Below are positions 8,745-26,269 of a stretch of DNA of 64,000 nt, one piece after another; within the stretch, counting starts at the first letter, position 1; each line of letters opens with the position of its first letter. A program made the translations under genes and the position numbers. The DNA is taken from the sequence record OR757434.1; one strand, given 5' to 3'. Below the pieces are notes generated by a model, which saw nothing but the letters and a program-made list of their open reading frames with translations, made no database searches and had not been told where the DNA came from. This stretch comes from Escherichia phage vB-EcoP-XT18.

Positions 8745-8926
8745 AGTGCTCTAGGTGTGAAGGAACAAACCTTCATTTAAGTAACAAGGTTATCAGAGAG
8801 CTTGCCAAAGGCTCTCCAACCAAAGGGAAGAACAAACGATTTACTAACGTCAGGGTTTATACAGCAATCTGTAAAGACTGCTTAACTACTGAGTGTCATT
8901 ACGAAGAAATTGGAGAGCGTAAATGA
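8714..8926 (+). CDS. small Cys-rich protein
   Basis: CSRC...CKDC...ECH. Confidence 0.35.
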   Translation: MVSYRMDIVVKCSRCEGTNLHLSNKVIRELAKGSPTKGKNKRFTNVRVYTAICKDCLTTECHYEEIGERK

Positions 8927-9660
8927 GTCGTCGTCAATCACGGAAAGAATCACGGAAAGACCTTCGTCGGGAAGCACTTGTCACTCGTAAGGGTAAGCGC
9001 GAGTTTGAAGAGGTGGTTTTAGCAAAGCCTGTAGTCCCTCAGAACCAGTTCCAGTCTGAACTGCTCAATGCTATCAAGACTAAACAAGTTGTGTTCACAG
9101 ACGCTCCTGCGGGCTGCGGGAAGACCTTTGTAATCACTTCCACAGTTATTGATGCACTGAAGAGTGGTAAGATTCAGAAGATCATTCTGAGTCGCCCTTC
9201 TGTTGGCATGGGTAACTCACTTGGGTTGCTTCCGGGAGGAATGCGTGAGAAATTTGAACCATATCTGATGCCAATCATTGATGTTATTACTCAGAGATAT
9301 GGTAAGGGGTTCTATGAATGCCAGCTCGGTAATAGTAACATTGAGTTTGTACCTCTGGAGTATCTCCGTGGTCGTTCTTTCAATGATGCTATCGTTATCG
9401 TTGATGAGTTCCAGAACACCACTAAAGATGAAGCCTTCTCAATCATGACTCGATTGGGAGAAACCTCTCAGCTGTTCTGCATGGGTGATACAAACCAGCA
9501 TGATATGCGTGGTCGTGAGAGTGGTCTTACTTGGGCTACTAACTTTATTGATGAACATGATCTGTATGAGTTCGCTGAGATTGTAGACGGCGAATCAGAT
9601 GACATTGTTCGTTCTGGTTTCTGTAAAGCTATTGTTAAAGCAATGGAAAAGAAAGCTTAA
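8923..9660 (+). CDS. phoH: PhoH-like ATPase
   Basis: Walker A APAGCGKT, Walker B IVIVDEFQN. Confidence 0.8.
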   Translation: MSRRQSRKESRKDLRREALVTRKGKREFEEVVLAKPVVPQNQFQSELLNAIKTKQVVFTDAPAGCGKTFVITSTVIDALKSGKIQKIILSRPSVGMGNSLGLLPGGMREKFEPYLMPIIDVITQRYGKGFYECQLGNSNIEFVPLEYLRGRSFNDAIVIVDEFQNTTKDEAFSIMTRLGETSQLFCMGDTNQHDMRGRESGLTWATNFIDEHDLYEFAEIVDGESDDIVRSGFCKAIVKAMEKKA

Positions 9661-9671
9661 ACAGTAACTTA

Positions 9672-9680
9672 TAATGTATA
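9672..9680 (+). promoter_or_regulatory. TAATGTATA, putative phage-sigma-dependent promoter
   Basis: motif about 35 nt upstream of the 9717 ATG; same 9-mer recurs upstream of other genes on both strands. Confidence 0.45.
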
Positions 9681-9716
9681 CTCCTTAGTGTACACTGATA
9701 TATTAAGGAGTTTTAA

Positions 9717-10040
9717 ATGGCAGACCATGTAGGAAAGAGAGATTATGCACAAGAAAGACGTACCGCCATCGCAAGGGGTGAAACGGGAATTGGTAGCAAG
9801 AGCGGAGATGCTCAGCGCCACCGTGCACGTCGCATCGTTGAAAAGCGCGATGGAAAAGCTGCTGTCAGAGGTAAAGACGTTGGACACAAGCGAGCCATCA
9901 AGTCAGGAGGCTCTAATGCGTCAAGCAACTTACGTGTTGAAACAGTCAGCGGAAATCGTTCAGCTGGCGGCAAAAGTGGAGATCGAGCTGGGAAGGCAGC
10001 TGGCGCTGCTAAGCGAAAAGGAGCTTTAAGCTCCTCGTAA
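9717..10040 (+). CDS. basic Gly/Lys/Arg-rich protein, possibly nucleic-acid binding
   Basis: AAGGAG RBS 6 nt before the ATG; an alternative frame 9745-10029 is also open. Confidence 0.45.
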   Translation: MADHVGKRDYAQERRTAIARGETGIGSKSGDAQRHRARRIVEKRDGKAAVRGKDVGHKRAIKSGGSNASSNLRVETVSGNRSAGGKSGDRAGKAAGAAKRKGALSSS

Positions 10041-10044
10041 TATG

Positions 10045-10075
10045 AGGCTACCCAAATGGGTGGCCTTTTCTTTTA
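10045..10075 (+). terminator. rho-independent terminator
   Basis: 9-bp stem AGGCUACCC/GGGUGGCCU with one G-U, then UUUCUUUUAU. Confidence 0.6.
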
Positions 10076-10108
10076 TATAAACCGAATTAAACTTCTTAGG
10101 TAATAACT

Positions 10109-10357
10109 ATGTCTATTGTAAAAACTGTAACTATTATTGATGTAATGACTGTCCGTCTGGTTAAGTGGAAATTCACCAACAATCATGGCATTGCTAATCT
10201 CATTGCAAACCAGATTGGTCATAACCCAAAAACAGCTCGTACTAACGTAATCCTCCGTGGTGCTGATGGGAAGTTCATTTCTTATAAGAATAAAGATGTA
10301 GAGAAAGAATTCCGTGTTGCAGTAGAAAACCTCATCCCATTCCCTAAAGGAGTTTAA
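10109..10357 (+). CDS. hypothetical protein, tandem paralog 1
   Basis: shares KTART.V.LR...GKFISY....PFPKG with 10359-10634. Confidence 0.5.
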   Translation: MSIVKTVTIIDVMTVRLVKWKFTNNHGIANLIANQIGHNPKTARTNVILRGADGKFISYKNKDVEKEFRVAVENLIPFPKGV

Positions 10358-10358
10358 T

Positions 10359-10634
10359 ATGAATAAATTAGCTATGGTTCAGATTCGAGACATATACCCT
10401 AACCATCCGGAGAAAACTTGGTCTTATCTGTTGACTGAAAGCAAGACTATTGACACATATCTTGCAGGGGTTGACACTATCCCAACCAGTATCACATTGC
10501 TCCCTCACAAAACAGCCAGAACCCATGTGATGTTACGTGACAGCAAAGGTAAGTTTATCTCTTATCGAGATGCTCGAATCAATAGCGAAATTAAATCTGC
10601 TATGGAATCTTTAACGCCATTCCCAAAAGGTTGA
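10359..10634 (+). CDS. hypothetical protein, tandem paralog 2
   Basis: paralog of 10109-10357. Confidence 0.5.
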   Translation: MNKLAMVQIRDIYPNHPEKTWSYLLTESKTIDTYLAGVDTIPTSITLLPHKTARTHVMLRDSKGKFISYRDARINSEIKSAMESLTPFPKG

Positions 10635-11230: not shown

Positions 11231-13075
11231 GTGAGCAACCCGGACGCTCTCCCATTTTTGACAGAGATGACTGTCGCTGATATAATCTCTAAGCAAGCGA
11301 AGCACGGAGTGAGTTTCAACCGAAGAAATGCTCGGTGGTATGTTCACCTCCTTAAAGAGATTATTGTTAATATTGACAAAGAACTGATTCCTCTCTTACC
11401 TAAGATGCGATTAGATGGCTCTACTTACATGAAACCATTTAAGAAGTCTGGAGCTTTACAGAAATGGCCTCAAGCCTATTGTGATAGAGTTGGACTTAAG
11501 AGAGAAGACATTGGTGGAGCATTCACCTGTGTTGAATACGTAGACTTTGACCCATCGAAAGATGCACGAGTTAAAGAAGCCCTTATGGATGAGGGTTTTC
11601 TTCCTCCAGAGTTTAACGTATCAAAGAAACCTTGGAATACTTTTGAAATCAAGAAAGATATGCGAAAGTATGGAACATACCAAGCATGGTATTCAGCTTG
11701 GATGCGAGGTAATGCTAAACAGAAGCAGACAGCCGAGATGGTTGACGCTGATATTAGGAAGTTCTTAGAAAAGCATTTTAGGTTTAAGACTAAGAACTAT
11801 ATGAAGGCTTATGTATTTGGTTTAGGTTTAAATCCTAACCGACGTAGACCTATCACTTTTGACGAGATTAAGATAGCACTAGCTACCTCAAACAAGTGGC
11901 CTACAGCTCCTACAAACCTCGAGGAGACTCTTGAAGAAGGGTTAGGGGGTGAGTTAGGAAGTGTCGGAAGTTTGCTTAAGAGACGCGTTGTAGCGGCTCA
12001 CAGGCTAGGTCTTATCAGTGGACTAATAGCAAAGGAACGCGAAGATGGTAAACTTTCGGCAGAAGCTAACAGCTGCGCTACGCCGACTTTTCGATTCAAA
12101 CATCGTATCGTGGTTAATATTCCCTCCCGTGGTTTGTTTGGTCATGAGTGTCGCAGTTTGTTTGAGTCTGACTATAACTCAGATGATGATCACTCTCGTC
12201 CTTTCGTTATTACTAACGTTGTTCCTGATGGTTGTTATATACGAAAAGGTACTAACGTAATTTACGAGAAAGGTAAGCCGGGGAAGAAAGATAAGCCTGT
12301 AGGTGCTTACAAATATTACATACCCGCTGGTAAAGAAGTATTCTTAGGGTATGATGGTTCTGGGTTAGAGTTGCGTATGCTGGTACATTATCTAGTAAAA
12401 GAGTGCCTTGATATGATGGAGGAGGCTAAACTAGAAAATGACAAAGTTAAATATCTAAGAGCTGAGAAAGGCTTAGAAGCTGCCTATACATACAGAGATG
12501 TACTGCTGTCTGGTGATATTCATTCCCACAATCAGAAACTCGCTGGGCTTCCAACTCGTGACAATGCAAAAACCTTCATCTATGGATTCCTGTATGGAGC
12601 AGGAGCAGCTAAAATTGGGGAAATAGTTGGAGGGGGTGCTCAAGAAGGTGAAATTCTTAGAGAGCGATTCTTAGCGGAATGTCCTTGTATTCCTATCGTA
12701 CTGGAGAGAGTTCAGGCCCGAGCGGAATCAGGCACTTTGGAAGGTGTGGATGGTCGTAAGTTAACTATGAGACGAGATGCTACTGGTAAGGTTATGGTGC
12801 ATAAAGCACTGAATACTCTACTTCAGAGTGCAGGTGCCATTGTCATGAAGTACTCTATTCTGTTTACAAACAAATGGGTAGAGCAGCAGAATATTAGAGG
12901 AAACAAAGTGATCGATTATCATGATGAAGCACAGTGGTCTGTCAACCGTAACGACGTTGATAAAATGAAGAAGATAGCTGAGACTTGTGTTAAGAAGGCA
13001 GGTGAATATCTAAACATGCACTGTGAACTAGCTTCTGATTGTAAAATCGGATTGAATTGGATGCAAACTCACTAA
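11231..13075 (+). CDS. Family-A DNA polymerase, polymerase domain (part 2 of the split polymerase)
   Basis: GYDGSGLELRML, SGDIHSHNQKLAGLPTRDNAKTFIYGFLYGAG and DYHDEAQ correspond to T7 gp5 motifs A, B and C. Confidence 0.85.
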   Translation: MSNPDALPFLTEMTVADIISKQAKHGVSFNRRNARWYVHLLKEIIVNIDKELIPLLPKMRLDGSTYMKPFKKSGALQKWPQAYCDRVGLKREDIGGAFTCVEYVDFDPSKDARVKEALMDEGFLPPEFNVSKKPWNTFEIKKDMRKYGTYQAWYSAWMRGNAKQKQTAEMVDADIRKFLEKHFRFKTKNYMKAYVFGLGLNPNRRRPITFDEIKIALATSNKWPTAPTNLEETLEEGLGGELGSVGSLLKRRVVAAHRLGLISGLIAKEREDGKLSAEANSCATPTFRFKHRIVVNIPSRGLFGHECRSLFESDYNSDDDHSRPFVITNVVPDGCYIRKGTNVIYEKGKPGKKDKPVGAYKYYIPAGKEVFLGYDGSGLELRMLVHYLVKECLDMMEEAKLENDKVKYLRAEKGLEAAYTYRDVLLSGDIHSHNQKLAGLPTRDNAKTFIYGFLYGAGAAKIGEIVGGGAQEGEILRERFLAECPCIPIVLERVQARAESGTLEGVDGRKLTMRRDATGKVMVHKALNTLLQSAGAIVMKYSILFTNKWVEQQNIRGNKVIDYHDEAQWSVNRNDVDKMKKIAETCVKKAGEYLNMHCELASDCKIGLNWMQTH

Positions 13076-15601: not shown

Positions 15602-15867
15602 AAGTTATTGTTTTAAGTTAAGTTTTCTTTTGATTTTAATAGAGAATCAAAGTCCTAGGAGTCCTCAACCTAAATCAAGGATTTCCTCAATTCTCTATTT
15701 TTATCTCGCAGGTGTCTCCTGCCCTTCGGTACTTGCAAGGGTTACGATGATTGCCCAATATACAAGCCTGCAATAGCTTTACTAGCTATACAATATATAC
15801 ATTACTAGTGTGTTATATCTACTACCAAAGATACTTATATTATATAGTACCCTTATCGGTATAAGCG

Positions 15868-15876
15868 TAATGTATA
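15868..15876 (+). promoter_or_regulatory. TAATGTATA, putative phage-sigma-dependent promoter
   Basis: in the 330-bp intergenic region upstream of 15935; an inverted copy lies at 15795-15803. Confidence 0.45.
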
Positions 15877-17234: not shown

Positions 17235-18720
<1,486 letters not shown>

Positions 18721-26260: not shown

Positions 26261-26269
26261 TATACATTA
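26261..26269 (-). promoter_or_regulatory. TAATGTATA, putative phage-sigma-dependent late promoter
   Basis: minus strand reads CTATAATGTATATAG about 35 nt upstream of the 26222 ATG. Confidence 0.45.

Follow-up and report, generated by a model that had tools for sequence, protein, structure and literature searches.

A middle-phase transcription unit in the replication module of an Escherichia kuravirus probably encodes a cysteine-free mini-HNH protein

In phage phiEco32, genes 6, 13, 26, 40, 58 and 68 were each found directly behind an experimentally identified promoter of the phage sigma factor gp36 (PMC8948821). These promoters carry a single consensus element, tAATGTAtA, with the start site 6-8 base pairs (bp) downstream (PMC8948821), the AATGTA core being centred at −11.5 (PMC12276001), and three middle and three late promoters of the gp36 type have been reported (PMC4281155). 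Promoters of the phiEco32 type are characterised by the element tAATGTAtA, with no need of a −35 hexamer, and by gp36-dependent initiation stimulated by gp79. Gene 58 of phiEco32 (phi32_58) and SU10_056 of phage SU10 are annotated merely as ‘hypothetical protein’. Here, we describe the corresponding locus, at positions 9671-10075 of a 64,000-nucleotide (nt) stretch of Escherichia phage vB-EcoP-XT18 (OR757434.1), the whole of which is referred to as the window. Over the locus and its flanks, the window matches Escherichia phages vB-EcoP-XT32 and XT73 (Kuravirus, Gordonclarkvirinae) at 100% identity, and 96 other phiEco32-like records show 80-97% identity to the region. A preliminary description, made from the letters of the window, had listed a TAATGTATA motif, an AAGGAG ribosome-binding site, an open reading frame (ORF) of 107 amino acids (aa), a second ORF in the +1 frame and a strong terminator, all of which were found in place. 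The elements of the unit are as follows.

9672-9680, + strand: promoter element TAATGTATA of the P58 type, an exact match to the consensus tAATGTAtA (PMC8948821)
9687-9689, + strand: predicted transcription start, 6-8 nt past the promoter element with a leader of ~30 nt, placed from the phiEco32 mapping
9705-9710, + strand: Shine-Dalgarno (SD) sequence AAGGAG, 6 nt before the ATG at 9717, kept in 15/17 relatives
9717-10040, + strand: coding sequence, ortholog of phiEco32 gene 58; 107 aa, 11.1 kDa, isoelectric point (pI) 11.5, predicted cysteine-free mini-HNH protein
10044-10075, + strand: intrinsic terminator, with a 10-bp G+C-rich stem and a 4-nt loop (10044-10067) followed by TTCTTTTA

In our reading, this cassette is the ‘P58 - gene 58 - terminator’ unit, transcribed in the middle phase and encoding a mini-HNH protein, of a Kuravirus (a podovirus of E. 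coli resembling phiEco32). The probability assigned to this reading is about 0.72, a joint figure for the identity of the unit, its expression, the HNH product, its likely role and the interpretation of the +1 frame as a by-product. Annotation notes and direct translation identified the 107-aa ORF as the ortholog of phi32_58 and SU10_056, and it matched phrog_4590 with an E-value of 2e-38. The three genes occupy the same slot between phoH and the DNA polymerase gene, share the promoter element, leader, SD sequence and terminator, and encode proteins of 93% identity; the window protein differs in having two additional tail residues and a Nieuwekanaalvirus-like 3′ segment. Neither the HNH assignment nor the block of synonymous constraint described below appears in the phiEco32 and SU10 annotations or in the literature examined on these phages. 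The claim of a stand-alone promoter-gene-terminator unit amid replication genes stood, its promoter being already experimental in phiEco32; the suggestion of an overprinted gene inside it was not supported.

The promoter was assessed by its frequency, conservation and partner protein. Five copies of TAATGTATA occur in the window against 0.75 expected, a number reached in 0/100 shuffles, and the window encodes a gp36 ortholog (below). The 22 nt at 9671-9692 were invariant in six genomes of three genera, and the whole promoter-leader-SD segment was nearly invariant in 15/17 relatives. Activity with the phage sigma factor was shown in phiEco32, and the element at 9672-9680 presumably acts in the same way in this phage. 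Host RNA polymerase carrying the phage sigma factor would recognise the single TAATGTATA and begin transcription ~7 nt downstream, and the strong AAGGAG would drive translation of the 107-aa frame-0 protein. Two further ideas were discarded. An internal promoter was rejected, as neither a sigma-70-like site in 9500-10300 nor another TAATGTATA in the vicinity was present. A hairpin in the leader that would mask the SD sequence had been suggested by ACTCCTTA (9680-9687), the exact reverse complement of TAAGGAGT (9704-9711), and it was rejected because, with the start site spaced as published, the 5′ arm falls just upstream of the transcript; the hairpin would form solely in read-through transcripts from upstream. 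Elsewhere in the window, copies of TAATGTATA at 15796-15804 (−) and 15868-15876 (+) point away from each other, 64 bp apart, and are probably a divergent pair of middle and late promoters; further copies lie at 26261 (−) and 41858 (−).

At the opposite end of this unit, the terminator hairpin contains 6 G-C pairs in its stem and is followed by TTCTTTT, with a folding energy of −18.1 kcal/mol (z = −4.7; 0/200 shuffles as stable). It is conserved among relatives with a varying loop, its stem shows a compensatory change from ACCC/GGGT to GCCT/AGGT in MN03, ES17 and WFI101126, and the annotations of SU7 and WFI101126 list it as a terminator. The hairpin would halt most transcripts ahead of the next genes, so that gene 58 could be expressed above the downstream replication genes.

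The frame-0 protein is real and conserved. Among 17 orthologs from three genera, the comparison set used throughout, variable sites were distributed 27/15/55 over the three codon positions, and the pooled ratio of nonsynonymous to synonymous polymorphism (pN/pS) was 0.22. A word-indexed search returned 91 clusters down to 44% identity, and a full profile search returned 1027 clusters at E ≤ 1e-3, nearly all of 80-115 aa; the distant clades retained the amino-acid motifs while their synonymous sites were free to vary. Frame 0 is the sole ORF called here in every annotated relative. In SU10, the product of CDS56 was found by mass spectrometry at 10.8 kDa, with 2 peptides and 18.3% coverage (PMC4281155). 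The calculated SU10 masses are 10.83 kDa for the frame-0 product and 10.14 kDa for the +1 product, so the reported value fits frame 0, and two frame-0 tryptic peptides (11 + 8 of 104 residues) give exactly 18.3% coverage. The search space of the SU10 proteomics was limited to annotated coding sequences (PMC4281155), and the study is for that reason silent on the +1 frame.

To define the product, we compared the predicted structure and the family alignment with known nucleases. At the computational level of fold and motif, the product of gene 58 belongs to the HNH (beta-beta-alpha-metal) nuclease superfamily as a minimal member without cysteines; it is a new branch of the HNH family and not a new kind of thing. 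Two parts of the protein need to be located.

9873-9962, + strand: predicted beta-beta-alpha metal-finger core, residues 53-82; strand 1 ends at H57, followed by G64-G65, N71 before strand 2 and N80 on the helix
9960-10037, + strand: Gly/Lys/Arg/Ser-rich C-terminal tail, residues ~82-107, predicted to be disordered, variable in sequence and length

H57 was present in 91/91 aligned family members, at the end of the modelled strand 53-57, N71 in 88/91 and N80 in 89/91, with a strand at 72-76 and a helix at 77-82 in the model; within the clade all three are strictly conserved. The residues R8, Y10, E13, R34, R38, G64, G65, N71 and N80 were each at least 90% conserved in the 91-sequence alignment, and the segment ‘..V-(D/G)-H-K-x4-GG-x5-N-L-x7-N..’ corresponds to the H-N-N form of the HNH motif. 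In the proposed architecture, two basic N-terminal helices carrying the invariant R8, Y10, E13, R34 and R38 would lie against a core in which His57 is of the catalytic type, Asn71 structural and Asn80 of the metal-binding type, followed by the disordered tail, whose predicted local distance difference test (pLDDT) score was 54-57 over residues 81-107 and in which indels and substitutions occur among orthologs. Pfam searches with relatives gave matches to HNH (PF01844; best E 1e-4) for 16/35 and to HNH_3 (PF13392) for 10/35, one fused relative scored 24.9 bits against the curated Pfam HNH cut-off of 21.4, and some relatives are named ‘HNH endonuclease’ in UniRef. Profile searches of the PDB returned sub-threshold HNH domains only (best E 0.067), and the BFVD matches were small viral ‘HNHc domain’ proteins. 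The proteins brought into the comparison were Gme nickase, Cas8-HNH, ZRANB3, I-HmuI, GVE2 HNH, Rhs2-CT toxin, IscB, Cas9, teneurin and VcaM4I.

The closest solved structures (Gme HNH nickase, 4H9D; GVE2 HNH, 5H0O; the I-HmuI catalytic domain, 1U3E) and the families PF01844/PF13392 share with gene 58 a size of ~100 aa and a beta-beta-alpha core with a His ending strand 1, an Asn before strand 2 and an Asn/His on the helix. The gene 58 family differs in its lack of cysteines, in N-terminal helices with their own invariant R/Y/E/R/R signature, and in the Gly before the His. No cysteine occurs in the window protein or in 88/91 family members, and therefore no structural zinc site is expected; the Cys4/Cys3His zinc site of the terminase-associated mini-HNHs (HK97 gp74, GVE2 and Gme type) is absent from the window protein. 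A gene called ‘hypothetical’ in ~100 sequenced coliphages, several of them therapy candidates, can thus be labelled a putative cysteine-free mini-HNH protein of the replication module. The same domain was also observed at the extreme C-terminus of 450-960-aa proteins (P0156, P0159, P0166, P0179, P0199, P0221 and P0230), whose N-terminal parts had no Pfam or PHROG match, an architecture reminiscent of toxin-tipped or virion-delivered proteins. HNH toxin domains (Rhs2-CT, 9T38; the teneurin C-terminal domain) resemble this family in that a few members are C-terminally fused to large proteins of 350-960 aa, and the Gly-His variant of the motif is common to HNH-type toxin domains and this clade. 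The phage proteins differ in being stand-alone, no immunity gene was identified, and the resemblance is at the fold level only.

The likely role was considered from the genomic context, for which three other genes of the window are relevant.

8923-9660: PhoH-like ATPase gene, upstream flank of gene 58
11231-13075: family-A DNA polymerase gene, 614 aa, starting ~1.2 kb downstream of gene 58
17694-18341: phage sigma factor gene (gp36 ortholog), 215 aa, matching phrog_1740 ‘RNA polymerase sigma factor’ with E 6e-46

In 7/7 unrelated phage contexts (including 46-, 50-, 70-, 90- and 103-kb contigs), homologs of gene 58 were located in the DNA-metabolism module. The homolog lay 1-4 kb upstream of DNA_pol_A in 6/7 and between dUTPase and DNA ligase in the seventh, and its neighbours in the seven contexts were DnaB, NrdD/NrdG, PhoH, dUTPase, ligase or ThyX, never terminase. 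HNH proteins of the HK97 gp74 type, likewise small stand-alone phage proteins, are encoded next to terminase/portal genes and stimulate cos cleavage (Kala et al. 2014, cited in PMC9965538). Gene 58 and its homologs differ in lying in the replication module, far from the packaging genes; in Bas91 the portal and head genes are ~35 kb from gene 58, outside any terminase/portal adjacency. This position sets gene 58 apart from the terminase-associated HNH proteins. Most likely, gp58 binds DNA non-specifically and nicks or cuts it in phage DNA metabolism, where it could process replication or recombination intermediates or break down host DNA. Literature searches on host DNA degradation and on Kuravirus RNA sequencing returned nothing useful.

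Apart from the promoter, one further segment of the unit was conspicuous at the nucleotide level.

9798-9893, + strand: block of suppressed synonymous change, codons 28-59 of gene 58, with nt 9798-9844 invariant

Codons 28-42 (9798-9842) were nucleotide-invariant in 17/17 orthologs. At codons for invariant residues, synonymous polymorphism was found at 6/28 within codons 28-59, compared with 37/51 elsewhere in the gene and 122/157 in phoH of the same genomes, giving Fisher P values of 1.6e-5 against the rest of the gene and 1.8e-8 against phoH, which are approximate because the sequences are related. Across 6.3 kb compared in six genomes of three genera, the only invariant runs of at least 22 nt were the promoter (22 nt) and this block (47 nt). 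Among 98 public phage records, 93 have at least 95% identity over 9798-9893, whereas 88 fall below 90% over the 96 nt at 9930-10025 in the 3′ third of the gene. The constraint reaches partly into the more distant relatives L062 and L063, not into L064, and is absent from two further clades of the family, with polymorphism at 16/16 and 17/17 codons; judged by these alignments, the suppression at 9798-9893 is confined to Gordonclarkvirinae. This clade-specific, nucleotide-invariant block is the remaining curiosity of the locus, the main value of the present analysis being one of tidying.

Frequent homologous recombination or gene conversion between coliphages infecting the same cell, perhaps promoted by flanking homing endonuclease genes, would account for the central invariance with gene 58 as a conserved junction between modules, an explanation which we hold to be possible but doubtful. 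A mosaic breakpoint does lie inside the gene: codons 60-97 of the window are 92-93% identical to Nieuwekanaalvirus EP335 (L044) and its close relative L011 and 85-87% to Kuravirus, and the order is reversed for the window phoH (95% to Kuravirus, 83% to L044/L011), so that by sequence comparison gene 58 is demonstrably a mosaic junction. Both of its flanks are insertion hot spots, with inserts of 0-866 bp between phoH and gene 58 and of 0, ~300 or ~500 bp between gene 58 and the terminator, and gene 58 or a homolog of it has a homing-type HNH or Endonuclease_7 gene as its immediate neighbour in SU7, ES17, EC.W14-3, L062, L064 and L065. Conversion tracts should, however, be most uniform at the gene ends near the endonuclease insertions, and it is the ends that are variable. 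Moreover, the same central sequence is found in genomes with and without endonuclease genes, and 47 nt fully invariant in every sequence examined are more easily obtained by selection than by conversion alone.

The insertions themselves take several forms, and gene 58 appears to be a recurrent homing target. In SU7 (L042, 1975-2304) and ES17 (L050, 2279-2608), a gene for a 109-aa classical Cys-containing HNH endonuclease stands in place of the P58 promoter and leader, and the stop codon of this homing-endonuclease gene overlaps the ATG of gene 58; gene 58 has therefore lost its own promoter there and looks translationally coupled to the homing-type gene. In EC.W14-3 (L052, 2102-2593), and also in YW01, YF01 and SGF2, a gene for a 163-aa HNH homing endonuclease overlaps the last codons of gene 58, and in EC.W14-3 the original gene 58 3′ end and terminator are duplicated after it. 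The genes abutting gene 58 homologs in L062, L064 and L065 are of the Endonuclease_7 or HNH_3 type. SU10-type kuraviruses (L043, 2487-2780; L049, 2120-2413; L053, 872-1165; SU10_055) have an additional gene, of 97 aa, placed after the stop codon of gene 58 and before the terminator, and the cassette is thus two genes long in these phages; SU10 gp55 was likewise seen by mass spectrometry.

A second layer of information in the central 47-96 nt (9798-9893) of Gordonclarkvirinae gene 58, in the form of a +1 protein specific to the lineage or of a DNA or RNA element acting in cis and linked to the P58 unit, is a tentative proposal that we consider possible but doubtful. If true, it would explain why the block is the most conserved nucleotide stretch of the compared 6.3-kb neighbourhood, and if functional, the block would offer a compact case, simple to recode, for studying an embedded signal or a newly arisen overprinted gene where transcription is already well studied. 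The cis-acting form taken by itself, with an origin or protein-binding DNA site or an RNA signal for terminator read-through alongside the HNH gene, seems unlikely. It would agree with the rank of the 47-nt run as the longest invariant one in 6.3 kb, the promoter being the only other of at least 22 nt, with the identity of the 96 nt across public records, with the clade-specificity of the constraint, and with the location of the block a short way downstream of a strong, regulated promoter, in a transcript rich in purines (62%). Against it, no specific structure or motif was detected. The RNA fold of 9790-9900 had z = −1.19, an alignment fold of 7 diverged sequences gave a covariation term of 0.03 with no convincing compensatory pairs, and Rfam at E up to 1 returned no match in the block and two chance-level matches elsewhere; RNA structure was rejected as the cause of the central constraint on these grounds. 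A host-derived or repeated segment was likewise rejected, with 0 matches in 5,426 E. coli genomes and no second copy in the window. The block contains no promoter-like site, the 8-bp palindrome CGTGCACG is its sole visible symmetry, and the ideas of an origin and of antitermination are analogies drawn from T4 origin R-loops and HK022 put.

Several observations weigh against the reading of gene 58 as an expressed mini-HNH nuclease of DNA metabolism. The window protein itself had no Pfam HNH match at E up to 1, and none in Pfam, NCBIfam or PADLOC overall. The residue before the catalytic His is Gly56 in the window protein and its clade, and Asp in 69/91 relatives. An Asp or His at this site, frequent though not universal among HNH proteins, serves as the first metal ligand, as in Cas9, T4 endonuclease VII and I-HmuI, and the Kuravirus protein may for this reason be inefficient or inert as a nuclease and do no more than bind DNA. 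For no member of the family were biochemical data found, the proposed role derives solely from the fold and the replication-module neighbourhood, and a dedicated strong promoter and terminator would suit a DNA-binding protein no less than an enzyme. The mini-HNH interpretation also leaves the central nucleotide invariance unexplained.

A rival reading is an HNH-fold protein that has lost catalysis and serves in replication as a stoichiometric small basic DNA-binding protein of the histone-like or coating kind. In its favour are the pI of 11.5, the composition (A17 G17 R15 S12 K11, with Gly+Lys+Arg making up 40% of the protein), the disordered basic tail and the replacement of Asp by Gly in the clade. 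Its own strong promoter, consensus SD sequence and terminator suggest high, possibly stoichiometric expression, and the protein was seen in polyethylene glycol-precipitated SU10 lysate. On the other side, the strict conservation of H57, N71 and N80 in the clade and their retention across the family argue for chemistry, and D54, on the same strand two residues before position 56 and present in 66/91, might be a substitute ligand that supplies the missing one. Other HNH clades with Gly before the His are known as active toxins. An inactive DNA-binder is rather improbable, and a nuclease of the mini-HNH type is preferred.

It was finally considered whether gene 58 contains a second gene.

9745-10029, + strand: ORF of 94 codons in the +1 frame, judged a compositional by-product and not a demonstrated gene

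For the overlapping genes of lambda (Rz/Rz1) and phiX174, each of the two products has been demonstrated, and stops are rarer in the second frame than expected. Gene 58 resembles them in having a long second frame inside a conserved gene with local synonymous suppression, and differs in that its +1 stops are at expectation, most of the frame is unconstrained, and the frame is known here from sequence alone. The openness of the frame follows from the composition of the frame-0 protein. A +1 stop is possible only where a codon has T at position 2 and the next codon starts with a purine, and T at codon position 2 makes up 12% in gene 58 against 26% in the genome; the long open frame is thus expected from the scarcity of T-at-position-2 (Val/Leu/Ile/Met) codons. 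When synonymous codons of the 107-aa protein were drawn with the codon usage of the window, at least 94 open +1 codons were obtained in 12% of the trials, and the mean number of stops was 2.36, the observed number being 2. Permuting the gene's own codons gave 1.4-1.6 expected stops against the same 2, and the single GTA codon of gene 58, which would make a +1 stop at any of six Val positions, sits at V5 with a chance of 1/6. Among 112 unique homologs with permuted synonymous codons, 53 stops were observed against 42 expected in close homologs and 186 against 193 in distant ones, so no clade showed depletion. A frame of such length had been called unusual in this AT-rich genome, which these trials contradict, and the property was shared by 3/61 other window ORFs of at least 100 aa. 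Also, 90 or more open +1 codons were counted in 34/87 distant homologs (39%), whose +1 sequences are unrelated. The locus is a worked example of how Gly/Ala/Arg/Lys-rich proteins automatically give long open +1 frames, even in AT-rich genomes.

Comparison of conservation and synonymous constraint in both frames, which had been named as one means of checking the second frame, gave a divided answer. All 25 unique close relatives (at least 85% identity), as well as L062 and L063, retained the open +1 frame and its ATG. The frame was broken by six stops in the nearest outgroup L064 (74% aa identity, with the same MADHVGKRDYAQER start and a TAATGTAAT motif upstream), and by 3 stops each in L065 and L059. 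The frame-0 constraint was restricted to codons 28-59; outside this block, in the other two thirds of the +1 ORF, 73% of the synonymous sites were polymorphic, as in phoH, and the synonymous changes there produce radical substitutions in the +1 product, the N- and C-terminal thirds of which change radically among kuraviruses. An overprinted gene in Gordonclarkvirinae, read from 9745-10029 or in a shorter form from the ATG at 9808 as a helical de novo protein of ~70-94 aa, would draw on the retained frame and ATG, on the suppressed central synonymous change, on the start of the invariant run at 9798, 10 nt ahead of the internal ATG, on the polymorphism of the one block site that is synonymous in both frames (R51, AGA/CGA), and on the absence of both constraint and open frame from L064. 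With stop counts at expectation, a pN/pS of 1.7 in the +1 frame, no well-spaced SD sequence before either +1 ATG (9745 or 9808) and a product with no homologs outside the locus, such a gene is highly improbable, and the overprinting that the preliminary description had thought possible is not supported. The ‘two genes in one’ reading can be set aside as an effect of composition, the open +1 frame appearing as a side effect of a protein poor in Val/Leu/Ile/Met codons.

The database entries for the +1 product comprised two clusters only, both gene-caller artefacts on an N-gapped scaffold. The public gene call for the +1 ORF lies at 1501-1779 of L146 (ENA scaffold MUNK22-1...scaffold_2415) and owes its existence solely to a run of Ns that takes away the frame-0 stop codon, illustrating that assembly gaps can seed spurious protein clusters. 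Ribosome profiling was not found in the literature searched; peptides diagnostic of the +1 frame for this phage would be AEMLSATVHVASLK, TLDTSEPSSQEALMR, QSAEIVQLAAK and VEIELGR.

The cassette had also been described as more GC-rich than its surroundings, and its GC is indeed raised (0.50-0.545 against ~0.42 for the window). The GC of gene 58 at codon positions 1, 2 and 3 (GC1-GC3) was 0.61, 0.59 and 0.37, compared with 0.53, 0.40 and 0.36 in long ORFs, so that the excess is confined to positions 1 and 2 and is due to the Gly/Ala/Arg content. With GC3 essentially at the genome value, the raised GC is no sign of foreign DNA, and horizontal acquisition was rejected as its cause.

The label ‘autotransporter adhesin’ in BLAST matches to the region belongs to a downstream gene and not to the 107-aa ORF. 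The small genes at 10109-10357 and 10359-10634 adjoin each other and are paralogs, both matching phrog_6814, and several GenBank records give the 82-aa product of 10109-10357 the name ‘autotransporter adhesin’, apparently by an annotation error. Further downstream, the DNA polymerase is noted in the phiEco32 record to lack both exonuclease domains, and Bas91 has a separate ‘DNA polymerase exonuclease subunit’ annotated elsewhere; a polymerase of 613-614 aa was also observed downstream of gene 58 homologs in several unrelated phages (L059, L060, L063 and L065).

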